37,105 nt of DNA from Promethearchaeota archaeon (GTDB lineage Archaea; Asgardarchaeota; Lokiarchaeia; Sigyniarchaeales; SOKP01): the NCBI GenBank assembly GCA_011364925.1, contig RDOA01000038.1, positions 1 to 37,105 on the forward strand. Direction: 5' to 3'. Position numbers and translations under genes: made by a program. This document shows positions 7,366-22,280 of this stretch, in pieces; positions within the stretch are counted from its first letter, which is position 1; every line of letters begins with the position of its first letter. Under the pieces are notes generated by a model. It saw nothing but the letters and a program-made list of their open reading frames with translations. It had not been told where the DNA came from and made no database searches.

Positions 7366-8481
7366 ATGAAAAGACTAAAAATTTGTTTAGTTTCTTTAAC
7401 AGTTTCTCCTGATAGTGCTGATGGAGAAGCTAAGGTAGTTAGAGCGCTTTTTGAGCACTTAAAACACCAAGGTCATGATGTTACACTAATTACTGGAATG
7501 TGGAATAAAGATTTAGGGGAACCAGACATAATTCAATTTAAACTCATTAAAAGGAGATTTTTTTGGGTTCCTCATTTTTATTATAGAGTAATTAAATTCT
7601 TAAGAAAGAACAACTTCGATATTATTCACGCTAATAGTGCAAAAGCAGCACTACCAATTATTTTAGCAGGACGAACAAAATTCCTATGTACAATTCACGA
7701 TTTCACTCCTTTTGAAACAGAACTTACAACTATCCCAATAGAAAGACTATTAATAAAATTTGTCTCAAAAAGAGCTTCAAAAATTATAACGGTTTCAAAT
7801 TTTGTTAAGACAGAATTCTATCATTATATCCCAAAACTTGATAAAAATAAGATTGTCACTATTTATAATGGTATCGAAGAAAAGTATAAACCATATCCTG
7901 AAGAGGCTCAGCGATTAAAAGAAAGATTGAAAATCAAAGGACCAATACTCTTATATATCGGGAGAATAACTCCTTACAAAGGAGTAAAATATATAATTGA
8001 GGCTTACAAAAGAGTTAAAGCTGAGCTCCCCACAGTAAATTTAGTAATTGGGGGAAAGCCAGATTATTTGATGGAGAAAGAGTATGTTAATTGGAACGAA
8101 TTATATAATGACATACTTTTTACTGGATTTTTACCCGAAGACGAACTTGCTTATTATTTTTCGATGGGTGATATATTTCTTACTTATTCTTCATCATCCG
8201 AAGGATTTGGTTTAACACCCTTAGAAGCGATTGCATGTGGGACTCCGGTTATATGTTCATCACTTACAGTTTATAGAGAAATACTAGGAAACAACGCTAT
8301 TTTTGTTCCCCCTAAGGATTCGATAAAATTAGCTACTAAAATCCTTCATCTTTTAAGCAATAAGGAATTAGGAGAAAGTATGGTAAAAAACGCTCAGACT
8401 TTTATTAAGAAATACAGCTGGAATATGGTTGGGGAAAGATTAGAACAAGTGTATAAAAAATTTCTAAACAGCGAAGATTAA
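7366..8481 (+). CDS. Glycosyltransferase family 4 (GT-B)
   Basis: GHDVTLIT, DIIHAN, IYNGI, YIGRITPYKG, EGFGLTPLEAIACGTPVI. Confidence 0.93.
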   Translation: MKRLKICLVSLTVSPDSADGEAKVVRALFEHLKHQGHDVTLITGMWNKDLGEPDIIQFKLIKRRFFWVPHFYYRVIKFLRKNNFDIIHANSAKAALPIILAGRTKFLCTIHDFTPFETELTTIPIERLLIKFVSKRASKIITVSNFVKTEFYHYIPKLDKNKIVTIYNGIEEKYKPYPEEAQRLKERLKIKGPILLYIGRITPYKGVKYIIEAYKRVKAELPTVNLVIGGKPDYLMEKEYVNWNELYNDILFTGFLPEDELAYYFSMGDIFLTYSSSSEGFGLTPLEAIACGTPVICSSLTVYREILGNNAIFVPPKDSIKLATKILHLLSNKELGESMVKNAQTFIKKYSWNMVGERLEQVYKKFLNSED

Positions 8482-8483
8482 TT

Positions 8484-9581
8484 TTAAATCTCTTCTTTCA
8501 CATGATTGAAACAAATTTCGTTTGGATTATCAAATTTCATGATTTTTTTTTTAAATGTATCGTTAAATCTATCAGTGCTTGGCTTTGATGATAATATTTC
8601 GATAGACTTATTTACGATATCTTCGATTTCCCTCATATGATTCAAAGGAAAGCCGTTTTCTATTAAAAATTGTTCCTGAGGCGCTGTATCTCCTGGAAAA
8701 AATTCTATGCTTGGTATATTTAAGAGGCTTGACTCACGAACGATTGTTCCACCTCCACTAATTACTAATGCACTATAATAGCATAAATCCACCATATTTG
8801 GCATATACCTAGTAATTATAACGTTTGGATTATCAGCATAACTATGTAATTTCTTTTTAAGAAAATCCTCTTGCTTTTCTGTTCTTACTATTAAGTAATA
8901 CTTTAGATCAGGACATTGGACATATATCGGTGGAAAGAATTGGCTAATTAATGTCTCTTCGGGTTTAAGCTTATTAATAAAATAACTTGCAAAACTCGGT
9001 TCAGTCCGAATAATGACAAATTTTCCTTTTTCTAAGGAATATGTATTTAGAACTTCAGGATTTGGTTCATAATCGTTAAGCCATGCTATTTCATCAATAC
9101 CATTGTACTTTATTAACTTATTTGGCTCTGCGTGAAGTTTCACGTACCATTCTTCTGGAACACATGCAGGAATTATAATCTTATCTAAATATGGAAATAT
9201 CAGCTTACACACAGGAATGTTACGAGGTTCGTCATTATAACCTATCGAAGGAATTTTTAATCCGTAAGAGATCCTCGCACCCTCAACAGATGAAAAGGTA
9301 ACAAAATAATCGGGTTTGAAGTCAGTAACAAATGGAAATAACTCGGTTAAGCGATTTATATAAGTCTCTAATTTATCCTCTAGTTTTTCACCACCATGTT
9401 TTCCTATCTTATGATATTTAATGTGTAAATCATCTAAAATTTGAAATGTTGAATCGTAATCTCTAGCTGTGGTTAATAGTTCTACACCCTCGTTTTGAAA
9501 ATTTCTTATTAAGGACTTGAACATGATTGCTGTTTTTGGTTCTTCAATGTCAATCCAAATTCTTTTATTAGATAAACTCAT
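8484..9581 (-). CDS. DUF354-family GT-B fold protein
   Basis: IWIDI, TARDY, IGKHGG, YNGIDE, SGGGTIVRESSLLNIPSI. Confidence 0.8.
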   Translation of the reverse strand: MSLSNKRIWIDIEEPKTAIMFKSLIRNFQNEGVELLTTARDYDSTFQILDDLHIKYHKIGKHGGEKLEDKLETYINRLTELFPFVTDFKPDYFVTFSSVEGARISYGLKIPSIGYNDEPRNIPVCKLIFPYLDKIIIPACVPEEWYVKLHAEPNKLIKYNGIDEIAWLNDYEPNPEVLNTYSLEKGKFVIIRTEPSFASYFINKLKPEETLISQFFPPIYVQCPDLKYYLIVRTEKQEDFLKKKLHSYADNPNVIITRYMPNMVDLCYYSALVISGGGTIVRESSLLNIPSIEFFPGDTAPQEQFLIENGFPLNHMREIEDIVNKSIEILSSKPSTDRFNDTFKKKIMKFDNPNEICFNHVKEEI

Positions 9582-9633: not shown

Positions 9634-10389
9634 TCATTTCCAATCTTCAGGTTTTTTCTTTAACAGTTTTGCAGGATTTCCTACAACAATATCGTTCTCA
9701 TTAGTGTTCTTAGTAACTACACTACCTGCTCCAACAATAGTCCCCTTTTTTAATGTAATCCCCGGTAAAATTACTGAATTTGCTCCCAGTGAAACATTAT
9801 CCTCTATTATTGGACCCAGTAGAGCAAATTCTCTTCGCTTCATGTATTTATCATTTGTTAACTTACTGAACGGTCCCATAAAAACATTATTTCCAATTTT
9901 GCAATATAGTGGGATATAAACTCCAGTTTGAATGCTTACCTCCGCTCCTATAACTACATTTCCATCAATTATAGTGTTAGTCCCAATTAAGGAATTATTA
10001 CCAACATTCGTTTTTTCTCTAATCATAACATTATGTCCTGTTTGACATTTTTGACCTATACTCACTTCAGAATAAATTATCGTTCCCGCTCTTATGGTGC
10101 AATCTCTTCCGATTGTTACTAAAGGACTCTGATGTTCTGTGGGTGCTTTTTTTTCTTTTATTATTTGAGATAAATCACCTCGTTGTGGATGACCAATGAT
10201 ACAATTCTCCCCTATATAAGAACCAGCTTGAACCAATGCATTTCCATATATTTTTGCCCCATTGGAAATATAGACATCACTCTCGATCTTTACTCCTTTC
10301 CCTATTGTTGTATAACTATCAATATATGCATTTTCATGAACATTCGCTCTTGGATGTATAAAAGAGAATTTATTTCGTTCTAAATTCAC
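9634..10389 (-). CDS. Hexapeptide-repeat acyltransferase (WbpD-like sugar N-acetyltransferase)
   Basis: Left-handed beta-helix repeats, QTGHNVMIRE, TNDKY, VGAGSVVTK, VVGNPAK. Confidence 0.85.
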   Translation of the reverse strand: MNLERNKFSFIHPRANVHENAYIDSYTTIGKGVKIESDVYISNGAKIYGNALVQAGSYIGENCIIGHPQRGDLSQIIKEKKAPTEHQSPLVTIGRDCTIRAGTIIYSEVSIGQKCQTGHNVMIREKTNVGNNSLIGTNTIIDGNVVIGAEVSIQTGVYIPLYCKIGNNVFMGPFSKLTNDKYMKRREFALLGPIIEDNVSLGANSVILPGITLKKGTIVGAGSVVTKNTNENDIVVGNPAKLLKKKPEDWK

Positions 10390-10451: not shown

Positions 10452-10745
10452 CTATTTTCCACATTTACAAGGAGAAGAACTACATTTTTTGCATAATTTT
10501 GGATATTTAGCATCTAATGCTTTTTCGAGATCAATACCTAAAATATTTGCAATAGAAACAGTCCAAGCAACGATATCTGATAACTCTTGAGAAATCTTCG
10601 TTTTATCAAGGCTCTTTGAGTTCAAAAGAGTAGCTAATTCTCCAACTTCCTCCACTAACCAGATAAATGTTGAATGAACTCCTCTCTCTAAATCTTTTTG
10701 AAGATAGAGCTCTTTTATTAAATTCTGAAAATCTAATATTTTCAT
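10452..10745 (-). CDS. MazG-like nucleotide pyrophosphohydrolase
   Basis: WLVEEVGELA, QELSDIVAW, C-terminal KYPxxCxxCxxxPCxC. Confidence 0.88.
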   Translation of the reverse strand: MKILDFQNLIKELYLQKDLERGVHSTFIWLVEEVGELATLLNSKSLDKTKISQELSDIVAWTVSIANILGIDLEKALDAKYPKLCKKCSSSPCKCGK

Positions 10746-10776: not shown

Positions 10777-10986
10777 TTAAGTAAATAACCATCCGAAAAT
10801 CCCTAACCAAGCAAATACAACGATTAAAACTAAAGCGACAGCAAAAACCACTGTAGTTATTGGACTAACTTTAATTCCAATCGAGCTATCTTCAAAGAAT
10901 CTCATCAAACCAGCACCCCCCATAGGCATTGGGGCGTTACCACTTCTTCTTTTTTTACGTCTTGATTGAGAACGTTGTGTTGACAT
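10777..10986 (-). CDS. Preprotein translocase subunit Sec61beta
   Basis: Basic N-terminus, GAGLMRFFED, IKVSP, single C-terminal TM helix. Confidence 0.92.
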   Translation of the reverse strand: MSTQRSQSRRKKRRSGNAPMPMGGAGLMRFFEDSSIGIKVSPITTVVFAVALVLIVVFAWLGIFGWLFT

Positions 10987-11140
10987 TAAATTATGATCAC
11001 AATAATTTACATTTGATTAAATAAAATTAAAACATCAAAAATAATAAGTCTTATCTTGAATTATAAAAAAAAAATTAATAAATTTTTATTAAGGGTATTA
11101 ATTATTGGTAGTTAATTTGAGTAAGAAAAGGCATTTTATC

Positions 11141-13018
11141 ATGAGAAAAAGAATTAAAATCTTCTTAATATTAGGAATTCTCTCGTTTATTTTTTTATTC
11201 CAATACTTTGGTGGTGATTCCACATATAAATATCAAGATCAAAATGAAAACGAAGTACCAAATATATCGAATAGTTTAGAGGGAGCTGAAAACATTTTAA
11301 TAAATTATATCCTACGCAATACTAATTTAAGTGCCTCGGGTTTGATTAATACGGTAGATACCTTAACTATCTTAAATGAAAACAACAATCCAATTAACTC
11401 AATCCTAATAGGTGTGCCATTAGAGGATGCTAGCAATCTAATTTTCATAAGTGCAAGAAGCGAGGCAAAAAATACTTTAATAGTTGAAAGAAACTATGGA
11501 GTATTGCAAAATTTCGAAATGATAAAAATATATTTTGATGCCCCACTTTTACCATCCCAGGAAAAAACATTATCCGTTAAACAAAGCTACATTAATCATG
11601 TAACCTACGATATAGCTCAGCTCGAAGAAGGAGTAACACAAATAGTAAATTTTAATGGGGTGCTTTGGCCGATATTGCCTTATCGATGTGAAGGAAATAT
11701 AAGATCATTCTATCGCGTACCTAAGGGTATAGAAATATCTGACTATGCAAAATTTGGGGATATGGGCACGGTTGTCCAATTAAACCAACAGGACAGAGTA
11801 TATTATGATCTTGCAAACAGTATAGAATATAATTATCTAGATCCATTGTTAGAAAATTTAAACGGAGCCTATATGACTTATGTTGCTCTAAAAACAACTA
11901 TACAATCCAGTAAAACTGGATTAGAAATTGAAGAAATTAATCGAGAAATTACTGTCTCTCCATGGGGTATCATTAAAAATTTAGAAGAGGTTACTATACA
12001 AAATGTAGGAATTATACAAATAGCATATTTCACATTGAATATACCTAAAGTTGCAAGGAATGTGAGAATTTTCGACGATTTAGGTGAATTGGTTGGAACT
12101 TTGGATACATCTCCGGATGATAATACTTTACAGCTTTTAACTGTCCAACTCAGTCAAAATCGTGTATATCTAATACCCTCTTCAAAGTTTACATTTTCCC
12201 TTGAATATGAATTACAACCTCAAAATTATCTTTCATACAATTGGCTTCAACAGTCCATTTCAATTAATCTTCAAACAACGAGTTATAATTTTCTTATTCA
12301 TCGACAGACAACTAAATTAATTATTGAAGGTTGTAGCACAATTGATTACGCATCATCTCCACCAGAAGCAACTTATAACATTGGTGGTACAAGGGTTCTT
12401 GTTTATAGTTCGGATTTAGTAGGCTCTCTGGAAAAGGATCCCATTTTAATAAAATATACAGTTGACTTATTTGATCTAATTCTTAGACCTATCGTTTTTA
12501 TAATGATTATAGCTGCTTTATGTTCAATTTTTGTGTTGATTATAAAAACCCGAAAGAGAACGGAAGAAGTATCGGAATTCAAAAAAGAGTTCATTCCGTT
12601 GACTGAAATCAGAGAATTTTGTTCTTTATATGAAGAAAAAAATGCTTTAATCTTAGAAATTAGAAAGGCGGAAAGTGAAACAAAACGTAAAAAAATAGGC
12701 AAAAAAACCTATAAAAATCTATTAGCTAAAAATACTGCCAAAATAGACCAAATAAAAGAAGAAATCTTGCCCTTTAAAAAGACATTAATGGAAATAAGCG
12801 AATCTTATAATAATATTATCAAAAAACTTGATGTCTTAGATGCTGAGAGAGAAAGTGTTGACGATAGTTTAAACCTCTTGGAATCTCGGTATAAAAGAGG
12901 GAAATTGCCCTCAAAAGCTGCTTATCAAAAGTTATCAGACGATTTCTTTAACAGAAGGAAGAAAATTGATAGGACAATAGACAAATACATACAACAACTA
13001 AGAAGCTATTTATTATAA
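11141..13018 (+). CDS. Ribophorin I (Ost1/RPN1)-like oligosaccharyltransferase subunit
   Basis: N-terminal signal/anchor, beta-rich ectodomain with INREITVSPWG, EEVTIQNVG, IFDDLGEL, one TM, charged helical cytosolic tail; ATG 11141 preferred over TTG 11105. Confidence 0.8.
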   Translation: MRKRIKIFLILGILSFIFLFQYFGGDSTYKYQDQNENEVPNISNSLEGAENILINYILRNTNLSASGLINTVDTLTILNENNNPINSILIGVPLEDASNLIFISARSEAKNTLIVERNYGVLQNFEMIKIYFDAPLLPSQEKTLSVKQSYINHVTYDIAQLEEGVTQIVNFNGVLWPILPYRCEGNIRSFYRVPKGIEISDYAKFGDMGTVVQLNQQDRVYYDLANSIEYNYLDPLLENLNGAYMTYVALKTTIQSSKTGLEIEEINREITVSPWGIIKNLEEVTIQNVGIIQIAYFTLNIPKVARNVRIFDDLGELVGTLDTSPDDNTLQLLTVQLSQNRVYLIPSSKFTFSLEYELQPQNYLSYNWLQQSISINLQTTSYNFLIHRQTTKLIIEGCSTIDYASSPPEATYNIGGTRVLVYSSDLVGSLEKDPILIKYTVDLFDLILRPIVFIMIIAALCSIFVLIIKTRKRTEEVSEFKKEFIPLTEIREFCSLYEEKNALILEIRKAESETKRKKIGKKTYKNLLAKNTAKIDQIKEEILPFKKTLMEISESYNNIIKKLDVLDAERESVDDSLNLLESRYKRGKLPSKAAYQKLSDDFFNRRKKIDRTIDKYIQQLRSYLL

Positions 13019-13038
13019 ACAATATAATTGGTGGCTTA

Positions 13039-13662
13039 ATGAAACCGTGGTTATGTGATATTTTAGCTTGCCCAATAGATAAGTATTACCCTTTAGAGTT
13101 AACCATCTTTTCATACGAAACTATAGAGGATGATTTCAAAAAGATTCTATCAGTTTATGAAGAAAGAGATTTAAATCATATTCAAGCTGAAAATATCATT
13201 GTAATTCAACAGGAAAATGGAGTGATTTATTTAAAAGATGATATTCTTATAGAAAAGAGCCCAATTAATGAGTATATAAATGGAATAAAATCAAGCATCG
13301 AGGAAGTAGAGCGAATATATGATAAATCTCCTTTTGAATTGAGTAAAAAATGTTTTAATATAATCAGAAAAGATATAAAAACTAAAATAGCGAGCTTTAC
13401 AAATTATGATGAATTTGAAAAGCTAAAGAATATATTGCCAGAGCTGTATTTTTTAAATAAGATGAAAACTGAAATTGAAATTGAAACAGGATTGTTGTTC
13501 TGTGCACAATGCAAGAGATGGTATCCAATAATTGAAACAATCCCTCAAATGCTTCCGGATGAGTATAGAAATGAAAAAGAAGAAGTTGAATTCCTCAAAA
13601 CCAATAAAGATTTATTAGATTCTACATTTTTTAATCAAAATTTAAAACCTTACAATTTATAG
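13039..13662 (+). CDS. trm112: Trm112-family methyltransferase activator with large central insertion
   Basis: MKPWLCDILACPIDK...EIETGLLFCAQCKRWYPIIETIPQML. Confidence 0.88.
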   Translation: MKPWLCDILACPIDKYYPLELTIFSYETIEDDFKKILSVYEERDLNHIQAENIIVIQQENGVIYLKDDILIEKSPINEYINGIKSSIEEVERIYDKSPFELSKKCFNIIRKDIKTKIASFTNYDEFEKLKNILPELYFLNKMKTEIEIETGLLFCAQCKRWYPIIETIPQMLPDEYRNEKEEVEFLKTNKDLLDSTFFNQNLKPYNL

Positions 13663-13675
13663 TCATCATAACCTC

Positions 13676-13777
13676 AGCCCGGTAGTGTAGTGGCCAAGCA
13701 TATGGGGCCTTGAACCCCGGGACCACGGTTCGAAAGTTGTCGAGTCAACTCGATGATCGATATTCCGTGCCGGGCTA
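13676..13777 (+). tRNA. tRNA-Gln (anticodon UUG) with a 29-nt intron (13735-13763) in the T-loop at 59/60
   Basis: Acceptor AGCCCGG/CCGGGCT+A (A1-U72 typical of archaeal Gln), D stem GTGT/GCAT, anticodon stem TGGGG/CCCCG with loop CCTTGAA (TTG at 13710-13712), T stem CACGG/CCGTG; removing 13735-13763 restores TTCGAAT and a 73-nt tRNA; CCA not encoded. Confidence 0.9.
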
Positions 13778-13799
13778 TTTTCTAATTTTTTTATATTTT
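13778..13799 (+). terminator. Oligo-T tract after the tRNA (archaeal terminator-like)
   Basis: TTTTCTAATTTTTTTATATTTT directly after the discriminator base. Confidence 0.45.
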
Positions 13800-13912
13800 C
13801 GCTTTCCTTTAATTTTAGTGCTTTAAAACCATAACTCATCGTTATTATCTCAAATCAATTAAACTAAAACAAAAAATTATATTAGAACAAAATTAATTTT
13901 CTGTAAATACTA

Positions 13913-15313
13913 ATGATTCGGATTTCTAACTTAAATTGGGACATAATTGAGATTTTTTATTTAATAATCATTTTTATTGTTGGCTTTGCTATTACAATGT
14001 TTTTAATCCCCTATGTCATAAAATTTATGAAAAAGAAAGGATTTATTGGGATTGATATCCATAAAAGTTCAAGTCCAGAAGTAGCTGAATCAGGAGGAAT
14101 AGCCTTACTTATTGGAATTGCTGGTACTTCATTATTATTAATTATTTTTTTTCCAAATTTTTTTAATGAAATCTTAATCTTCATTTTAACAGTAGTAGTA
14201 TCTGGGATAATTGGATTTATTGATGATCGAATTAGATTAAAATCGAGATACAAAGTAATCCTGACAATTTTTACTGGTATTCTTATTTTCCTCGCAAATG
14301 TGTCCGGTTTTATTACTATCGAGGCTCCCACAATTCCTTTCCTTGGAAAATTAAGACTAAATATAATATATCCTATCGTTGTTCCGATAATTGTTGCGGT
14401 ATTTGCAAACACTGTTAATATGCTAGAAGGGTATAACGGTGAAGGTTCAGGTACAGCTATAATTGCTTTAATTAGTTTGTTTATTTGCTCAATTTTGTGG
14501 GATTCCGCAGAAGGATTGTTATTTACATTAGTCTCATTAGCCGTTTTAATACCTTTTTATTTTTATAATAAATTTCCCGCCAGACTCTTTCCTGGAGACG
14601 TTGGAACACTTAGTATCGGCGCTATTTTTGCAGGCATCGCTTTATTTGGATCCCTTGAGGCTGCTGTGTTTTGTGCCCTATTGATTCATATTTTTAATAG
14701 CTTTTATGTGTTGTATTCAGTAAAAGGATTTTTCGAGAGTAGTGAAATATTAGGTAATAAAACTGATATCATAATGCTGGAGAATGATCAAATTAAAGCG
14801 TCCGATCAAAAAAGCGCTGCTCTAACACTACCAAGATTGATATTGGCAAAAGGACCTTTAAGAGAACCTGATATAGTTAAGAACATCTATATTATTTCAA
14901 TGGTTTGTGGGTTTATTTCAATTTTAACTACATTATTAATGGTAATAACAGTAAAAAACCAAGATTTTACGATTTTCATCATCCTAGGCTCTATTTTCTT
15001 GGTGATTACGATAATATTACTGTACTTTTTTCCAAGAATTAGAGGTATTGTAATTCTGATGACAATTTTGATTGTGGTTGGCTATATTTATCTTGTTTGT
15101 ATTGAATTATTTATAATGCCATTGAACTTTATAGATATCAACATTTTTGGTTTAATCATTCCAACTAATATCCTCATTTCTTTAATTTTAGTGATCCCAG
15201 GACTTTTGGCTTGGTACTACATCACGATTAAATACTTTTGGTATGAGATAAAAAAAATGAAAAATTCGCTTCAAAGTAATGTTAGTAGTTCGATAGGAGC
15301 AACAGAAATGTAG
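13913..15313 (+). CDS. aglH: UDP-GlcNAc:dolichyl-phosphate GlcNAc-1-P transferase (AglH/ALG7/DPAGT1-like, MraY superfamily) with extra C-terminal TMs
   Basis: GIDIHK, PEVAESGG, GFIDD, NTVNMLEGYNG, NKFPARLFPGDVGT, LTLPRLIL. Confidence 0.85.
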   Translation: MIRISNLNWDIIEIFYLIIIFIVGFAITMFLIPYVIKFMKKKGFIGIDIHKSSSPEVAESGGIALLIGIAGTSLLLIIFFPNFFNEILIFILTVVVSGIIGFIDDRIRLKSRYKVILTIFTGILIFLANVSGFITIEAPTIPFLGKLRLNIIYPIVVPIIVAVFANTVNMLEGYNGEGSGTAIIALISLFICSILWDSAEGLLFTLVSLAVLIPFYFYNKFPARLFPGDVGTLSIGAIFAGIALFGSLEAAVFCALLIHIFNSFYVLYSVKGFFESSEILGNKTDIIMLENDQIKASDQKSAALTLPRLILAKGPLREPDIVKNIYIISMVCGFISILTTLLMVITVKNQDFTIFIILGSIFLVITIILLYFFPRIRGIVILMTILIVVGYIYLVCIELFIMPLNFIDINIFGLIIPTNILISLILVIPGLLAWYYITIKYFWYEIKKMKNSLQSNVSSSIGATEM

Positions 15314-15378
15314 TTTAATAGAGCTTTTATTTGTTATTTAAGTTGGATATATATAATTAAGGATTAGTTGATGTAAAT

Positions 15379-17928
15379 TTGAAAATATTCATTCGTTTCG
15401 GTCTATTATTTTTATATTTATTAATTTCCCTCGGTTCTGCGACAGTTTCATATTTTTTAATATGGAATGTTAGATTACCAGAACTTTTAAATGACTGGAC
15501 TTTCTATGTTCTGCTTATTTTTTTCTTATTGTCAATTGAAGAATTATACCGTTGGGCAAAAAATGGCAAAAGGAGCGAATTGAGTGATTTTGTCGCTATT
15601 ATATTCTTCTTTTTTCTTCTATTCTTTTTTTCAAAAGATATTTTAACTTCGATAATGGGTGCCTTTTCAATCTATTTATGGTTTGGAGTGTACGAGTTAA
15701 AAGATTACCCCGTATTAAATAAAATCTTAACAATATCTCTAGTAACATATAATATAATATTTGTTTCAGGAATAGTTTCAAATGTTTTAGGTAATCCAAT
15801 TGTTATTAACACTGCTTTTTCGTTTTCTTTTTGGATTATCCTTATATTAGGTTTTATTCTATTTGGTCGAAAGTACATAGTTATATGGAGATTCATGTCT
15901 CCTGAGTACTTGACATTATTTCTATATATTATTGCTTGGTTAGCCATTGTTTTTGTTACTGAATACACTCCTCTTAACTTTATTTCGGGTAAAGCCTTTC
16001 TTTTTGACTCTTTTTCAATTTGGGAACTTTTCATGAATGTATACATAGTTTTAATAGTAATAAATTGGATCATTTACTTTATTTCAGGGCCGATTTTGGA
16101 TTTCATGCTTGGGATTAAGCCATTAAAGGATAAAAAATTATTAAATTTAATAGAAAAAGTAAAATTAGATATTGGAATAAAAGGAAAAGTAAAGGTAGGG
16201 ATAGGAAACTATCCAATTCTAAATGCCATGGCATACGGTTCGCTTTTTGATAAACGGATTGCTCTTATCGCAGAACACTACAATTTAGTACCAGAAGATG
16301 AGGTTAAAGGTATTGTTGCTCATGAATTGGCACATACGAAAGGAAAACATACTTTAATCTTGACTTTTATTACATCGGGAGATTTGGTTATAAGAATGCT
16401 ATTTGGTATTCCTGCCACATACTACGATTATACTTTCGGGAACCCTCAGCTTCCATTTATTTTATTTCTTCTTTTAAACTTACTCATTTACATTATTTTG
16501 TTTATGTTTGTTAGAATTTTAGAAGGGAAAGCTGATCAAAAAACAAAAAGAATTGGGTATGGGAAGGAGCTGGTAAAAGCGCTTTATAATTTAGAGAGCT
16601 TTTACGCTACTGGGCGTGAATTTGGATTAAATACAATGCTTTTATCTGAAGAAAAAATTACAAAAAATAATGAAATTTTAAACTATTTAGAAACAGCAGA
16701 TTATATTAACAAATCCATAATTAAACCAAAGAGGGGATCTTTGGTAAGTAATATAATAAACTCTCATCCACTTACATACCACAGAATTGCTGCAGTACTA
16801 GATGATTCGTTAAAACCAACAAAAGAAATGCTTCTACCTTTTTTATGCTTAAAAAGATCTTACCAAAAAAAATACGCTAAATTATTTGATGTGGCACGTA
16901 GTAAATTTAAAGAGATCGCTAGCGAGAAATTTAGAGAGTATTTCAACATTAAAGATATCTCTGCTTATATGAACGCAATAAAGAGGCTTGAACTTTATAA
17001 ATTTGAACTCAACCAGGATTTTATATTTATTCATAAGATTACAGGTGAAGTGATCGTAGGAAAATTGGAAAACGTACGATTAATAGATGATGCCTGCGAA
17101 ATTGACGAATATATTGTTAGAGAATTTAAAACTGATAAAAAAGTATTCCTGAGTTCTTCGGAATATTCAAAATCTCATGTTTCACTAAAAGATGATTATT
17201 TTATGGAAAAATTGGGAACCTTGAAGCTTACAGATATCTCCTTAGGTTCAGATCAAAAGAATTCAAAATATATTTTTTCGGATAAAAATGGACAGAAAAT
17301 TTTAAAAAATTTAAAGAAGACAAAATTGCCAAATCCGATATCATTTATAAAATCATTTGCCGATAAAGATGTTTTTTTCACAACGAAAGGTGACACTCTC
17401 GTACTAAGGTGTACAAATGTTCAAATTTCAGATAATTTTAAAGATTCAGAGCTATTTCTCGAAAATTCTCCTGTGAATGAGAAGGCTGACAAGTTCCGAT
17501 TCAAATTTAAAGATTTAATAATAAAACCTAAAAACATTTATATTAATGTAAAAAGAAATGAAAAGGGGTTTAAAACAGAATCTAAAATTTTTGAATGGTT
17601 GATAGAAAAACAACTAAGGACCTACATCTATTTAAAAAAACCTGTCAATAACATACAAATAGGTTATATTCAAGAAATTCATTTTGTTGTTGAAAATTCT
17701 AAGAAAAAACAAAATGGAGGAGAATATGAAAGAGGTAGTTATATTATCATTAAAAATATTTTCGGTGAAACTCAAAAAATAATATACAAATCATTAGAAA
17801 CCGTATCCTTCGAATATATTACGGGGAAAATTCAAAAAAAGTCAGAATCGAGTATTTTTAGCAAGTTAGGATATGTATTGTTGAAAAAATTCAACCCAGA
17901 AAAGATAATTTACCTTAACAAACTTTAA
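15379..17928 (+). CDS. Large membrane M48-family (HtpX/Ste24-like) zinc metalloprotease with extra N-terminal TMs and C-terminal soluble extension
   Basis: NAMAYG, HELAH (16321-16335), EGKADQ, LVKALYNL, SHPLTYHRI. Confidence 0.85.
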   Translation: MKIFIRFGLLFLYLLISLGSATVSYFLIWNVRLPELLNDWTFYVLLIFFLLSIEELYRWAKNGKRSELSDFVAIIFFFFLLFFFSKDILTSIMGAFSIYLWFGVYELKDYPVLNKILTISLVTYNIIFVSGIVSNVLGNPIVINTAFSFSFWIILILGFILFGRKYIVIWRFMSPEYLTLFLYIIAWLAIVFVTEYTPLNFISGKAFLFDSFSIWELFMNVYIVLIVINWIIYFISGPILDFMLGIKPLKDKKLLNLIEKVKLDIGIKGKVKVGIGNYPILNAMAYGSLFDKRIALIAEHYNLVPEDEVKGIVAHELAHTKGKHTLILTFITSGDLVIRMLFGIPATYYDYTFGNPQLPFILFLLLNLLIYIILFMFVRILEGKADQKTKRIGYGKELVKALYNLESFYATGREFGLNTMLLSEEKITKNNEILNYLETADYINKSIIKPKRGSLVSNIINSHPLTYHRIAAVLDDSLKPTKEMLLPFLCLKRSYQKKYAKLFDVARSKFKEIASEKFREYFNIKDISAYMNAIKRLELYKFELNQDFIFIHKITGEVIVGKLENVRLIDDACEIDEYIVREFKTDKKVFLSSSEYSKSHVSLKDDYFMEKLGTLKLTDISLGSDQKNSKYIFSDKNGQKILKNLKKTKLPNPISFIKSFADKDVFFTTKGDTLVLRCTNVQISDNFKDSELFLENSPVNEKADKFRFKFKDLIIKPKNIYINVKRNEKGFKTESKIFEWLIEKQLRTYIYLKKPVNNIQIGYIQEIHFVVENSKKKQNGGEYERGSYIIIKNIFGETQKIIYKSLETVSFEYITGKIQKKSESSIFSKLGYVLLKKFNPEKIIYLNKL

Positions 17929-17956
17929 TTAGATTGGTTCTGTTTAAAAATTTATA

Positions 17957-18895
17957 ATGACCACGAAAATAAGAAGTATTTTCCACCTCTTAAGAATTAG
18001 ACAATATTATAAAAATGTATTAATCTTCGTCAGTCTTTTCTTTAGTTATAAGATTTTTCATCACACACTTTATTTGCCATTAATCTTGGGGTTTATATTA
18101 CTATGCTGTGCTTCCTCATTTAATTATATAATAAACGATATTATAGATATAGAATCTGATAAGCAACATCCGGAAAAAATAAAAAAAAAACCATTAGCAT
18201 CAGGAGAACTCCCCGTATATTTCGCAGTTTTACTCTTAGTAATCATCGTAGGAATTATTGTCCTTTCATTCATTTTCTTAATTCCAAACCTTGGCTTTCT
18301 AATAATGCTTATACTTGTGATATTAACAGGCCAGCTCTATAACCATTTCTTTAAGAATTACGCGTTCATTGACATATTAGTTTTATCGACGGGCTATCTT
18401 TGGAGAGCGTTAGCTGGAGTTGTTATAATCGATGACATCGTTTCTCCATGGCTATTTCTAGCAATTTTCGAAATTGCTATGTTCTTAAGCATCGCTAAAA
18501 GGAGGGGCGATTTGTTGTATCTTGGAAAAGACATAGCCATTGAACATAAAAAGGTATATGACAAATACTCTGTTAAACTTTTAGATCAATTCTATGTTAT
18601 AATTGCAGCTTCATTGTTTATGACTTACTCGCTTTATCTAATAACTAAATTTTTTATTATCGAAGGAGCAATAATAGTTCCAGACTTGCAAGTATTTATG
18701 GTAATTTTCACTATTCCTATTTCTCTCTACATAATAATGCGGTTTATGTATTTAACTTCGTCGAAACCAGAAATAGCAAGGAGAACTGAAAAAGTATTTT
18801 TCGATAAAGGGATCATTATTTCAGGATTGTTACTCTTTCTAATATTGTTTACTGCATATTATTATGATATCATTATAGGATTGATTGAAGGTTAA
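17957..18895 (+). CDS. UbiA-superfamily prenyltransferase, polyprenyl-phosphate phosphoribosyltransferase-like
   Basis: LRIRQYYKNVLIF, YIINDIIDIESDKQHPEK..KPLASG, KRRGDL, multiple TMs. Confidence 0.8.
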   Translation: MTTKIRSIFHLLRIRQYYKNVLIFVSLFFSYKIFHHTLYLPLILGFILLCCASSFNYIINDIIDIESDKQHPEKIKKKPLASGELPVYFAVLLLVIIVGIIVLSFIFLIPNLGFLIMLILVILTGQLYNHFFKNYAFIDILVLSTGYLWRALAGVVIIDDIVSPWLFLAIFEIAMFLSIAKRRGDLLYLGKDIAIEHKKVYDKYSVKLLDQFYVIIAASLFMTYSLYLITKFFIIEGAIIVPDLQVFMVIFTIPISLYIIMRFMYLTSSKPEIARRTEKVFFDKGIIISGLLLFLILFTAYYYDIIIGLIEG

Positions 18896-20082
18896 AGAGA
18901 TTCCATTTCTAAATCCATTTTTAATAAAGTATTATAACATATCGATGTACAACCCTTTAAACTTTCGACTGAGCATTTATCAGGTGTATCTTTGGAAGAA
19001 TGAATAAATCTTGAATCCTTGAATGAATGGAAAAAAGCTATTTGGAACTTTTTACTTTTTCTCTTAAATTTCCTCAATTCTCTGTGGTCGCTTCTAGGTT
19101 CTATCAGTACAGGATATACGATTAAAGGAACATTTAATTCATTTGCAGACTCCTTAATAAGGTTATTCAATTTATCATTCATTTTCCTCCTTCTTACAAT
19201 CCCTACCTTATCGATCAGTCCTAGATAAGTTCCTACCATATCAATATTAATGTTGCACGATTTATTGAGATCATATTTCTGCATTATATCCTTTTTATGC
19301 TCTCGATAAAAATTTTTTGCCCCCTTATTCCCCCATTCCTCCGCACCGGTCCAAAGGAATAAAACATCGATATTTTCTAATGGTTTTCTGTTAATTTCTT
19401 TAGCTAATTCGATTAAAATCGACACCCCACTAGCGTTATCTATCGCTCCATAGGAATTTTGGATCTCATAAACTAATAGAACTATTACAATAATGATAGC
19501 GAACTGAACTAAGGATGATATAATAACCAAATCAAAGATATACTGATTGAATCGATAATATACAAAATCGAGAATAAGTAGTGCTGAAATAAAAATAAGA
19601 AAACCTAAAAACGGCATAATGACGACTCTAAATATAAAAAATAACACTTTTTGAATTCTATAAGGTATTATCGAAGTAAAAGAGTCATAATGGGCAGTAA
19701 AAATAACAAGAGGTCGATGATCGACTTGATTTCTCGCTGGAATAACAGTATATAGGTTTTTAGACTCCTCCTTTTTAATTAAAGTTAGCCTACGTGTCGT
19801 TGCAAATAAATTTTTAACAATATAATAGATAATTATCGCAAGGAATAATCTAAAAATTAATAAGTAGGAAATGAGAAGTGTATAAAATATTCTCATAACC
19901 ATTCTTCTTGCTCCTGTAAAATTAAAATGCTCGATCGTAGAATATATTTGTTCTTTTTCTAATTCCGTTTTAATATAATTTATAGCTTTAGTTTCCCCTT
20001 CAGTTGAAGCATTTCGATTATGCGCTAAATTGTTTACATGCTCTAAAACTTGATATTGATAATCTAAACTTTGATTTATCAT
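18892..20082 (-). CDS. Membrane-embedded M28-family metallopeptidase
   Basis: AHYD, GAIDNASGV, GAEEWG, NIDMVG, SDH, IHSSKDT with hydrophobic segments inserted in the catalytic domain. Confidence 0.85.
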   Translation of the reverse strand: MINQSLDYQYQVLEHVNNLAHNRNASTEGETKAINYIKTELEKEQIYSTIEHFNFTGARRMVMRIFYTLLISYLLIFRLFLAIIIYYIVKNLFATTRRLTLIKKEESKNLYTVIPARNQVDHRPLVIFTAHYDSFTSIIPYRIQKVLFFIFRVVIMPFLGFLIFISALLILDFVYYRFNQYIFDLVIISSLVQFAIIIVIVLLVYEIQNSYGAIDNASGVSILIELAKEINRKPLENIDVLFLWTGAEEWGNKGAKNFYREHKKDIMQKYDLNKSCNINIDMVGTYLGLIDKVGIVRRRKMNDKLNNLIKESANELNVPLIVYPVLIEPRSDHRELRKFKRKSKKFQIAFFHSFKDSRFIHSSKDTPDKCSVESLKGCTSICYNTLLKMDLEMESL

Positions 20083-20510: not shown

Positions 20511-22280
20511 ATGGAAAGGAAAAATATAGTAATAGTGCTTCTTGCGATAGCATTAATCTTTTCTGGTGTAGGAAACATAATCCTCGGTAGCTTCTTGGGA
20601 CTTATTCAACCTACTCCACCTGCGCCAAAACAAGAAGCTATTGTTGCTACAACAAACACTGTAGTAGATCTCGATCCTATGTACGCTTATGATACTGCTT
20701 CTAGCGCGGTAATCGAAAATGTTGCTGAGTCATTATATACAATAAACTGGTCTGATCCAACTTACCCAACTGTCCCATTATTAGCAACGGCGTTGCCTAC
20801 CATCTCACCAGATGGTAAAGAATATACTATTTCTCTTAGACAGGGAGTTTACTTCCACGACGGAACGTTATTCAACGCTTACGTCGCTAAATGGACTTTT
20901 GATAGGTATAATTACTTTATTAACTGGTCTGGTAATTCCTACTATCCTGATGGATATACAGCTGGTGGATACGATTTCCCATTCAATACTTCTTTACCTG
21001 TTACCGTTCTACCAACTCAGACTGCTATCTTATTCAAAACTGCTACTGGGTTGCTACTTATTAATAGGACAGAAGTAGTTTCAGATTACGTAATTAAGAT
21101 CGTGTTGAACGAAGTAAAAGCTTCTTTCATGGCTCTTTTAGGATTTTATGGCACTTCAATGTTATCTCCAAATCACGCTCCACCTCATAGATACTATCGA
21201 AACGACGAGAAGTTAGTAGGAACAGGTCCATTCGAACTTTCGTACATTTTAGCTGATGTCGAACAGAAGATAGTCAAATTCGACAACTATTGGAAAGGGC
21301 CCGCACAACTCGACTCCGTTATTTGGTCTGTTTTTGACGATATAAACACTATGAACCAAGCGTTCTTATCTGGTGATGTTAATGTATTGTTAGGACCGGA
21401 TAGACCATTCTTCACCCAAATTGAAGCTGATCCAAACTTAGACTTGGTTTATGTAGGAAACCTTTTTTCAAGTACCTGGATTACTTTCAATGTTGATCAT
21501 ATTCCCGTTGCTATGAGAAAGGCAATCGCCTACGCGTATAACTACTCGTATATAATTAATGTAGTTTATCTTGGCGATGCGATCAGATGGCCAACCTATA
21601 TACCAATGGGTATACAATATGCCAACTATAGTCTAAACTATCCTACCTTCGATCGAACCTTTGCGAGGAACCTTCTCTTAACTGATCCTACATATGGTCC
21701 GATTTGTGCCGCAGCCGGCTTAACTGCTGCAAGTACAGATGCCCAATGGATTGCTGTTGCTACTGGTCCTAATCCAATTGCTTCCTTTAACTATACCTGG
21801 AATCTCGGAAATACGAAAAGGCAAGGGATGGGAGATAGATTATCGTTTGATCTGCAATACATCGGTGTCGACTTATCGTCCTTAGGTGTCGCATGGGGCG
21901 ACTTGCTCGATGCACTCTTAGTTGATCGCCATAAATTAGATTCGTACTCTCTTGGTTGGGCGCCTGATTATCTCGATCCTGAGAACTGGTTTAACCCAAT
22001 TTGGAGTAACCAATCAGATATCAACGGTGGAAACTATAACGTAAATTATAACCCTGCTACGGCGCCTGCACAAAGACTGATGGACGCTGCGCTCACTGAG
22101 ACTGATCCACAAACAAGAAAGTTAATGTACTGGGAACTTCAAAGAGAAATGGTTGAAGTAGACTATCCTGGAATGCCACTTATCTCAGCCGTCAATTATG
22201 ATGCCTGGGTATCCAATTTCCATGGGTATGTTTCAAACCCTGCTTCTAGAGCGTATTGGTATGGATGCTACTTCAGTTAA
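20511..22280 (+). CDS. dppA: Peptide ABC transporter substrate-binding protein (family 5)
   Basis: N-terminal anchor, LDPMYAYD, PLLAT, YTISLRQGVYFHDGT, VGTGPF, MRKAIAYA, GWAPDYLDP. Confidence 0.92.
   Translation: MERKNIVIVLLAIALIFSGVGNIILGSFLGLIQPTPPAPKQEAIVATTNTVVDLDPMYAYDTASSAVIENVAESLYTINWSDPTYPTVPLLATALPTISPDGKEYTISLRQGVYFHDGTLFNAYVAKWTFDRYNYFINWSGNSYYPDGYTAGGYDFPFNTSLPVTVLPTQTAILFKTATGLLLINRTEVVSDYVIKIVLNEVKASFMALLGFYGTSMLSPNHAPPHRYYRNDEKLVGTGPFELSYILADVEQKIVKFDNYWKGPAQLDSVIWSVFDDINTMNQAFLSGDVNVLLGPDRPFFTQIEADPNLDLVYVGNLFSSTWITFNVDHIPVAMRKAIAYAYNYSYIINVVYLGDAIRWPTYIPMGIQYANYSLNYPTFDRTFARNLLLTDPTYGPICAAAGLTAASTDAQWIAVATGPNPIASFNYTWNLGNTKRQGMGDRLSFDLQYIGVDLSSLGVAWGDLLDALLVDRHKLDSYSLGWAPDYLDPENWFNPIWSNQSDINGGNYNVNYNPATAPAQRLMDAALTETDPQTRKLMYWELQREMVEVDYPGMPLISAVNYDAWVSNFHGYVSNPASRAYWYGCYFS

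Follow-up and report, generated by a model that had tools for sequence, protein, structure and literature searches.

Gene content of the locus

The window analyzed here is the whole of contig RDOA01000038.1 (37 kb), part of a 3.9-Mb Asgard genome (Promethearchaeota, Lokiarchaeia-type) of about 30% GC. It carries a gene cluster in which Sec61beta stands head-to-head with a homolog of ribophorin I, an oligosaccharyltransferase (OST) subunit called OST1 below. An earlier note, made from the sequence alone, had taken this cluster for one linked system of translocation, glycosylation and quality control that prefigures the endoplasmic reticulum (ER). Proteins were identified with Pfam at its curated cut-offs, NCBIfam and sequence searches of the PDB, and RNA genes with ARAGORN and Rfam. 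The seven proteins named in the note all exceed the Pfam curated cut-offs and lie where it had placed them (Table 1). These are Sec61beta, OST1, Trm112, an AglH/ALG7-type polyprenyl-phosphate N-acetylhexosamine-1-phosphate (HexNAc-1-P) transferase (GT4), a long M48 protease, a UbiA-superfamily enzyme and an M28 peptidase. On the plus strand, OST1, Trm112, a tRNA gene, GT4, M48 and UbiA follow one another with gaps of 20, 13, 136, 65 and 28 nt. The distance of 154 nt given for the head-to-head pair is right if OST1 starts at the ATG; the longest open reading frame (ORF), from a TTG, leaves 118 nt. The coordinates of the note left out a GT-B glycosyltransferase (GT1), a DUF354 protein and a QdtC-like N-acetyltransferase, which lie upstream in the same neighbourhood, as well as MazG.

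As the note had stated, STT3/AglB and SecY are encoded outside the window, on contigs C28 and C64, and an OST3/6 match is found on contig C3. The STT3/AglB match (G000:C28:40820-41989) sits in an open frame of 1294 aa, unusually long for AglB. The sole OST3_OST6-family match of the genome (G000:C3:4212-4547) belongs to a 181-aa ORF and covers profile positions 178-288 only, that is, the C-terminal membrane part; its size and the region matched are as expected for a DC2/OSTC-like small subunit.

Table 1. Genes and other features of the cluster and its flanks, in window coordinates.
Feature	Position	Strand	Basis and remarks
GT-B glycosyltransferase (GT1)	7366..8481	+	Pfam Glycos_transf_1 / Glyco_transf_4, 2e-36
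DUF354 protein	8484..9581	-	Pfam DUF354, 164 bits
Left-handed beta-helix NDP-amino-sugar N-acetyltransferase (QdtC/WlbB-like)	9634..10389	-	Pfam Hexapep, 7.5e-35
MazG-like nucleotide pyrophosphohydrolase	10452..10745	-	Pfam MazG, 1.6e-9; downstream of Sec61beta
Sec61beta	10777..10986	-	Pfam Sec61_beta PF03911, 42.3 bits vs cut-off 27
Ribophorin I/OST1 homolog	11141..13018 (longest ORF from TTG 11105)	+	Pfam Ribophorin_I PF04597, 55.1 bits vs cut-off 25
Trm112, with insert of ~100 aa	13039..13662	+	Pfam Trm112p, split match, residues 5-165
tRNA-Gln(UUG), T-loop (59/60-type) intron of ~29 nt, C33	13676..13776	+	ARAGORN once insert removed
AglH/ALG7 (DPAGT1)-type polyprenyl-phosphate HexNAc-1-P transferase (GT4)	13913..15313	+	Pfam Glycos_transf_4 PF00953, 99 bits, 2.8e-28
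Long M48 zinc metalloprotease, 849 aa	15379..17928	+	Pfam Peptidase_M48, 59 bits
UbiA-superfamily enzyme, decaprenylphosphoryl-5-phosphoribose (DPPR) synthase type	17957..18895	+	Pfam UbiA; starts 28 nt after M48
Membrane-anchored M28 aminopeptidase, convergent with UbiA	18892..20082	-	Pfam M28, 1.6e-21
Family-5 (DppA/OppA-type) solute-binding protein, then its ABC transporter	20511-22280	+	Follows the cluster

OST1 and its glycan-synthesis neighbours

OST1, Sec61beta, GT4 and the long M48 were located in 151 genomes of the phylum, and 20 kb were fetched around OST1 (40 genomes) and around M48 (20 more), with iterated profile searches. Families carry anonymous labels; f1, the family of the window, and its sister family f2 are the families of the window's order.

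OST1 is the only gene of its genome with a Ribophorin_I match, which covers profile positions 6-228 of 437. The AlphaFold2 (AF2) model (predicted local distance difference test, pLDDT, 87) displays a signal anchor, two beta-sandwich outer domains, one transmembrane (TM) helix and a cytosolic helical bundle. It aligns with human RPN1 (8pn9_E) at Z 32.4 over 515 residues and with yeast Ost1 at Z 27-31 over ~390 residues. Its tail superposes on 8WHN at Z 19.6 (root-mean-square deviation, rmsd, 1.9; 46% identity), which it also matches by sequence (E 2e-35). The RPN1 architecture is thus complete in the model, as the earlier assignment would have it, and the protein is a full ribophorin I. The OST1 proteins of f7 and f26 (L023, L034, L037, L041) are 981-1034 aa long, compared with ~580-720 aa elsewhere, and have a large extra N-terminal (outer) region.

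GT4 is the sole PF00953 gene of the genome. Its best PDB match is human DPAGT1 (5lev, E 1.7e-11), ahead of MraY (2e-8), and with the MraY equivalog models, archaeal as well as bacterial, its scores stay far under the cut-off; the proposal of an ALG7-like enzyme is therefore borne out, DPAGT1 being its closest relative among solved structures. AglH/GT4 measures ~445-475 aa in f1, f2 and f12, where it has additional membrane helices at the C-terminus, but ~290-385 aa in the majority of other Asgard families.

The widest link found in the survey joins these two genes. GT4 lies within ~6 kb of OST1 in seven families: f1 (23/25), f7 (24/26), f12 (13/13), f13 (2/2), f16 (3/4), f19 (5/6) and f26 (1/1). 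This OST1-AglH linkage, present in the cluster as the note described it, recurs in at least four different arrangements, GT4 being found at +2.7 kb, at -3.2/-4.1 kb, divergent at -1.2 kb, at -4.2 kb, or at +4.9 to +6.2 kb relative to OST1. When the neighbours of OST1 were clustered without bias, the acetyltransferase (8 families), Trm112 (7) and GT4 (7) ranked top, and GT1, DUF354, a GFO/IDH/MocA oxidoreductase and housekeeping genes also recurred. The acetyltransferase matches QdtC best in the PDB (3fs8, E 5e-33, nearly full length). Of 16 families, 8 have an ortholog of it (E ~1e-100) near OST1, and in f12, f16 and f24 this gene is immediately upstream of OST1. GT1, which probably extends the glycan, has homologs near OST1 in f1, f16 and f5, and in the same position in L043. 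DUF354, for which no PDB match was obtained by sequence, is near OST1 in all f1 loci and also in f16 and f19.

Such recurrence could be mostly neutral, with housekeeping genes left adjacent in slowly rearranging lineages and coupling confined to a few true operons. Indeed MazG, Trm112 and tRNA-Gln, which have no known glycosylation role, are equally conserved in place, OST1 of distant families also stands beside glycine-cleavage, MutS-like and RNA-cyclase genes, and the adjacency of Sec61beta and OST1 (see below) arose once, in one order. However, a single-copy GT4 stays within ~6 kb of OST1 despite changes of position and strand, the top recurring neighbours of OST1 are glycan-synthesis enzymes, and the Sec61beta-OST1 pair outlasts the replacement of all its surroundings. 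Neutral synteny is thus, in our opinion, rather unlikely as the general explanation.

The gene that follows the cluster, in the window and in most f1 relatives, encodes a family-5 binding protein. In the cultured relative Candidatus Prometheoarchaeum syntrophicum, the main N-glycoprotein by far is a family-5 solute-binding protein (PMC11284389). The protein of the window has 8 sequons against 5.1 expected, an unremarkable number; we infer that it may be linked to N-glycosylation.

Sec61beta, Trm112 and tRNA-Gln

Sec61beta, a single-copy gene, encodes a small tail-anchored protein of 69 aa with a basic N-terminus and a single C-terminal TM helix at residues 46-64. Both the family match and this form agree with its identification, the score against the NCBIfam equivalog being slightly under the cut-off (49.5 vs 55). 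The order of MazG, Sec61beta, OST1 and Trm112, with the first two transcribed away from the last two, was found in 20 of the 20 f1/f2 loci fetched. By coordinates, Sec61beta and OST1 are adjacent and divergent in 27 of 28 f1/f2 genomes, the lone exception being a contig break. The note had proposed synteny across Asgard genomes as a check, and the gene order is not unique to this genome. Also, the pair is kept where OST1 identity is as low as 26-29% and where the flanking genes have changed. Outside the window's order, no adjacency was seen among ~95 other Asgard genomes sampled: the distance between the two genes is 16-17 kb in f3 and f21, and elsewhere they are separated by 39 kb to >350 kb, in most cases by >90 kb, or lie on separate contigs. 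Since the pairing is confined to one order and the genes are far apart elsewhere, it does not look ancestral for Asgard archaea. The link between Sec61beta and OST1 claimed earlier thus holds through one whole order and is absent beyond it, and the adjacency is a derived feature of that order.

Within this order, the common divergent spacer probably co-regulates the two genes. Alignment of the spacers revealed a conserved A/T-rich block at 11065-11091; it was rejected as a promoter, this being too weak a call in a genome of 30% GC. Co-folding of OST1 residues 430-625 (TM helix and cytosolic tail) with Sec61beta returned a score of 0.00, which is no answer and is evidence neither way.

MazG adjoins Sec61beta in f1/f2. 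In the complete genome of locus L042 (NCBI CP070831.1, 565106-587577), its place is occupied by a ubiquitin-like gene with ThiF (E1), UQ_con (E2) and JAB deubiquitinase genes, all directly adjoining Sec61beta (L042 1-3600).

Trm112 is a methyltransferase activator. The protein of the window scores 51 bits, under the cut-off, against NCBIfam Trm112_arch, and its gene is found near OST1 in 7 of 16 families. As regards the tRNA gene next to it, neither ARAGORN, with or without its intron option, nor Rfam at gathering thresholds made a call, and Rfam gave a weak tRNA match of 14 bits. An insert of 27-31 nt follows TTCGAA in the T-loop, and once it is removed ARAGORN calls tRNA-Gln(TTG); the tRNA that the note had seen in the cluster is therefore real, and carries a T-loop intron. 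Its anticodon loop, CCTTGAA, has C33 instead of U33. Apart from the window, only its three nearest relatives of the same genus (L002-L004) were found to have the intron (~29-30 nt), and an intron-less version of the same tRNA directly follows Trm112 in 8 other f1 loci (L005-L007, L010, L011, L020, L021, L043), so that the intron looks like a recent gain. A tRNA adjoins Trm112 in f1, f7 and f22, and tRNAs that share the 5' end of the tRNA-Gln of the window stand beside Trm112 or OST1 in distant families (L037 in f7, L030 in f22, L022 in f3, L029 in f21). On this basis, OST1-Trm112-tRNA looks like an old syntenic block.

The long M48 protease, the UbiA-type enzyme and the M28 peptidase

The only M48 enzyme of the genome has ~9 TM helices, a HELAH motif at residues 315-319 and an ExxAD motif at 382-386 (E382/A385/D386), and its catalytic residues are invariant in 36 homologs. 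The top Foldseek matches of its AF2 model (pLDDT 83) are ZMPSTE24/Ste24p (E 1e-6). Residues 110-475 of the model superpose on residues 72-471 of the ZMPSTE24 chain (VIA; Z 13.6, rmsd 4.3, 277 residues), a Z score close to what helical bundles may reach by chance. The superposition runs from TM2 to the C-terminus and extends well past the catalytic core, to which the likeness with the HtpX domain (Z 10.2 over 90 residues) and BlaR1 (Z 7.5, clearly lower) is confined. By sequence, no match to Peptidase_M48_N (PF16491) was found at E <= 0.01, and searches of the PDB with the single sequence or a 36-sequence profile returned no Ste24 chain. The likeness to Ste24 put forward in the note is thus seen at the level of fold, where it is suggestive and not conclusive. 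The cytosolic tail (~535-849) is modelled as SH3/KOW/Sm-like beta-barrels, of which residues 727-819 resemble Hfq (Z 10.5). An assignment to HtpX (M48B) was rejected: the best HtpX model gives 31.6 bits against a cut-off of 341, and a protein of 849 aa and ~9 helices differs from the four-TM enzymes of ~290 aa. The most likely role of the protein is that of a membrane-protein protease, putatively of the chamber type. The authors of a 2023 review called uninformative their own search for the protease domain of Ste24 among Asgard sequences, and the fold-level likeness of this M48 family to Ste24 therefore seems unreported in the papers searched.

The note had gone further and tied the protease to the translocon, in an integrated system. 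On such a model, M48 would unclog SecY/Sec61 as Ste24 does and M28 would trim secretory proteins. In addition to the fold and to the fact that no second M48 enzyme is encoded in the genome, this idea draws on position: in most genomes of f1, ~4.4 kb separate M48 from Sec61beta, and in the unrelated genome G092 (f24; L053 8144-11543, G092:C88) Sec61beta is followed on the same strand by the long M48 after a gap of 197 nt. The comparative data argue the other way. The long M48 occurs in at least 10 Asgard families and is near OST1 in f1 only; in f2, f4, f5, f14, f18, f22, f25 and f27 it is either on a different contig from OST1/Sec61beta or hundreds of kb away, and no shared neighbour outside the window's order is common to more than two families. 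The adjacency in G092 was found in 1 of the 41 genomes of its order and was accordingly dismissed as a conserved trait of that order. Moreover, five same-genus genomes without the long M48 retain Sec61beta-OST1-Trm112-UbiA. They carry elsewhere a different M48 of ~576 aa (G117:C17:5173, G109:C67:34427, G057:C53:18036, G099:C59:4305, G138:C119:1236), a type that is absent from the genome of the window, and it looks as if one had been swapped for the other in this sub-clade. This comparison gives no support to a tie between M48 and the translocon, and an integrated translocation, glycosylation and quality-control system appears improbable to us.

At the G092 locus, an NTPase_I-T (ITPase-type) gene is closely spaced on the same strand with Sec61beta and M48. 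This group thus includes an enzyme of nucleotide house-cleaning, as does the window with MazG next to Sec61beta.

M28 fares no better as a member of the cluster. The family is expanded in the genome, with 13 matches, several of which have N-terminal membrane segments, and only 3 of 20 related loci, all of the same genus, have the gene in this place (4 genomes with the window). It is a bystander, outside the conserved set.

The constant neighbour of M48 in f1 and f2 is UbiA, which follows it with gaps of ~20-30 nt, and this constancy too speaks against a role at the translocon. In f2 the M48-UbiA pair lies on another contig than Sec61beta/OST1, divergent from a cis-prenyltransferase gene, and its surroundings include HMG-CoA reductase, an MVD-like enzyme, a GHMP kinase, an amino-acid-kinase-family (IPK-type) gene, DegT and AglH. 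The specific tie of M48 is therefore to the lipid-carrier block and not to the translocon. As for UbiA itself, its only PDB matches are the decaprenyl-phosphate phosphoribosyltransferase structures 8j8j and 8j8k (best E 5e-23, residues 7-260).

The Ste24-like fold suggested for M48, the tight spacing of the pair in f1 and f2, and its position in f2 beside mevalonate-pathway genes and the cis-prenyltransferase could also be read in another way. M48 and UbiA would form a separate module acting on lipid-modified (prenylated) proteins or peptides, as Ste24 does as a CAAX prenyl-protein protease, and their proximity to glycosylation genes would be incidental. However, UbiA resembles DPPR synthase, which transfers a sugar phosphate to polyprenyl phosphate, and not a protein prenyltransferase; eight other families have the long M48 without a UbiA neighbour; UbiA remains with OST1-Trm112 where the long M48 is missing; and no candidate substrate is known. 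We regard a prenylation module as very improbable.

A proposed mosaic neighbourhood serving N-glycosylation

The six genes Sec61beta, OST1, AglH, M48, UbiA and M28 are not kept together across independent lineages. What is conserved are sub-blocks: Sec61beta-OST1 in one order, OST1-AglH in seven families, M48-UbiA in one order and M28 in four genomes. Thus, of the single linked system proposed in the note, the OST1-AglH link and, within one order, the Sec61beta-OST1 link are upheld, and the quality-control half is without comparative support.

The most fitting description of the locus is one of three blocks brought together in family f1. We think it fairly probable that these blocks, of differing evolutionary depth, form a mosaic neighbourhood for N-glycosylation at the cell membrane, with a polyprenyl (dolichyl) phosphate as the carrier. 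The first block, OST1, Trm112 and tRNA-Gln, would be an old Asgard block that is head-to-head with Sec61beta (plus MazG) only in the window's order. The second would comprise GT1, DUF354, the QdtC-like N-acetyltransferase and the sole AglH/ALG7-type transferase, which recur by OST1 in many Asgard families. The third would be the M48-UbiA pair, whose other context, in f2, points to polyprenyl carrier synthesis through its cis-prenyltransferase and mevalonate-pathway genes. From the known roles of these families, AglH would put the first HexNAc-phosphate on the lipid carrier, and the remaining transferases and the acetyltransferase would build the glycan. The UbiA-type enzyme would possibly make a lipid-linked pentose donor. 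Then AglB, encoded elsewhere, would move the glycan together with OST1 onto chains leaving SecY/Sec61, while the cytosolic helical bundle of OST1 would dock the ribosome.

Several points weigh against this mosaic reading. In 13 families, the sister family f2 among them, no OST1-GT4 linkage was found. Related genomes are not independent, and the sixteen families cannot be counted as so many separate events; the divergent orientation of GT4 and OST1 shared by f7, f19 and f26 may have been inherited from one ancestral state. Catalytic AglB, OST3/6 and SecY are unlinked to the cluster, and the agl genes of the cultured relative P. syntrophicum are reported to be dispersed and not clustered near aglB (PMC11284389). 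Trm112, MazG and the tRNA are without known glycosylation role, so that part of the order may be neutral synteny. UbiA reaches 163.7 bits with its best NCBIfam model, NF008977, against a cut-off of 234; under the equivalog level and with the phosphoribosyltransferase as its sole PDB relative, it is a homolog of that type and not a proven equivalog. The second sugar of P. syntrophicum N-glycans is a pentose (PMC11284389), and that the UbiA-type enzyme could supply it in lipid-linked form is a guess. Finally, we infer the co-regulation as well as every enzymatic step.

Taken together, the data support a functional tie of archaeal OST1 to N-glycan assembly and fit a joint regulation of OST1 and Sec61beta in Lokiarchaeia-type genomes; they do not support a conserved component for quality control at the translocon. 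The "proto-ER operon" picture has to be corrected accordingly, the translocon link being derived in one order and the proteases lying outside the conserved set. A bolder proposal can be made for the long M48, namely that it is an archaeal relative of Ste24/ZMPSTE24 overlooked by sequence searches, whose barrel array could dock to ribosome-translocon sites or to lipid-carrier enzymes, and a precursor of ER membrane-protein quality control. We hold this to be a long shot; if true, the presence of M48 beside Sec61beta in f1 and in G092 would be a trace of a quality-control function.

These results matter in view of the Asgard homologs of the ER translocon and OST, which are invoked as evidence that co-translational N-glycosylation is older than eukaryotes, a case made so far from protein presence and heterologous assays. 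Gene order brings independent, modest support for a role of archaeal OST1 in N-glycosylation, as in seven families OST1 keeps the company of the sole initiating N-acetylglucosamine-1-phosphate (GlcNAc-1-P) transferase and of glycan-precursor enzymes. Also, two leads could be tested in cultured strains: the fold likeness to Ste24 of an M48 protease widespread in Asgard archaea, and the possible origin of the pentose of Lokiarchaeial N-glycans from an enzyme resembling DPPR synthase.

Comparison with known systems

The closest eukaryotic counterpart is the mammalian OST-A/Sec61 assembly, with whose RPN1 (8pn9, 6s7o, 8b6l) the OST1 model aligns over 515-536 residues at Z 32, and the DPAGT1/ALG7 enzyme has its counterpart in GT4. 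In contrast to the mammalian case, the locus does not imply any internal membranes, the genes for STT3/AglB, the OST3/6-type subunit and SecY lie apart from it, and the archaeal assembly is a putative one. With Ste24/ZMPSTE24 (M48A), the protease of the window shares the HExxH + ExxAD zinc site and a multi-helix membrane domain; unlike Ste24, it has about two extra N-terminal helices and the tail of ~310 aa with SH3/KOW/Sm-like barrels on the cytosolic side. The mycobacterial UbiA/Rv3806c, a decaprenyl-phosphate phosphoribosyltransferase (8j8j), is both the sole solved relative of our UbiA-type enzyme and the type described by its best NCBIfam model. In contrast to the Rv3806c type, the host is an archaeon with dolichol-type carriers, and neither DprE1/E2 nor phosphatase partners were observed beside the gene at its locus. 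Like the archaeal agl clusters, the locus groups glycosyltransferases, sugar-nucleotide-modifying enzymes and an initiating transferase. However, the agl clusters of Haloferax and Methanococcus centre on aglB, whereas this one centres on the non-catalytic OST1.

Among Asgard archaea, the likeness of Sec61, OST and TRAP to the ER machinery has already been published, with a structure of the OST1 cytoplasmic domain (PDB 8WHN), and the OST1 tail of strain MK-D1 (Ca. Prometheoarchaeum syntrophicum) binds eukaryotic ribosomes (Carilo et al. 2024, J Biol Chem, PMC11417166). The glycoproteome paper on P. syntrophicum called OST1 absent from this archaeon (PMC11284389), in conflict with Carilo et al. 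The window encodes the same Sec61beta and an OST1 with the same luminal domains, one TM helix and cytosolic helical bundle as the MK-D1 set. The MK-D1 study treated the proteins one by one and did not discuss gene order, so that the pairing with Sec61beta in one order and the position of AglH by OST1 in seven families constitute additional evidence. What is new here is the phylum-wide count of the OST1-GT4 link, the fold of the long M48, the isoprenoid context of the M48-UbiA pair and, for one sub-clade, the loss of this long protease.

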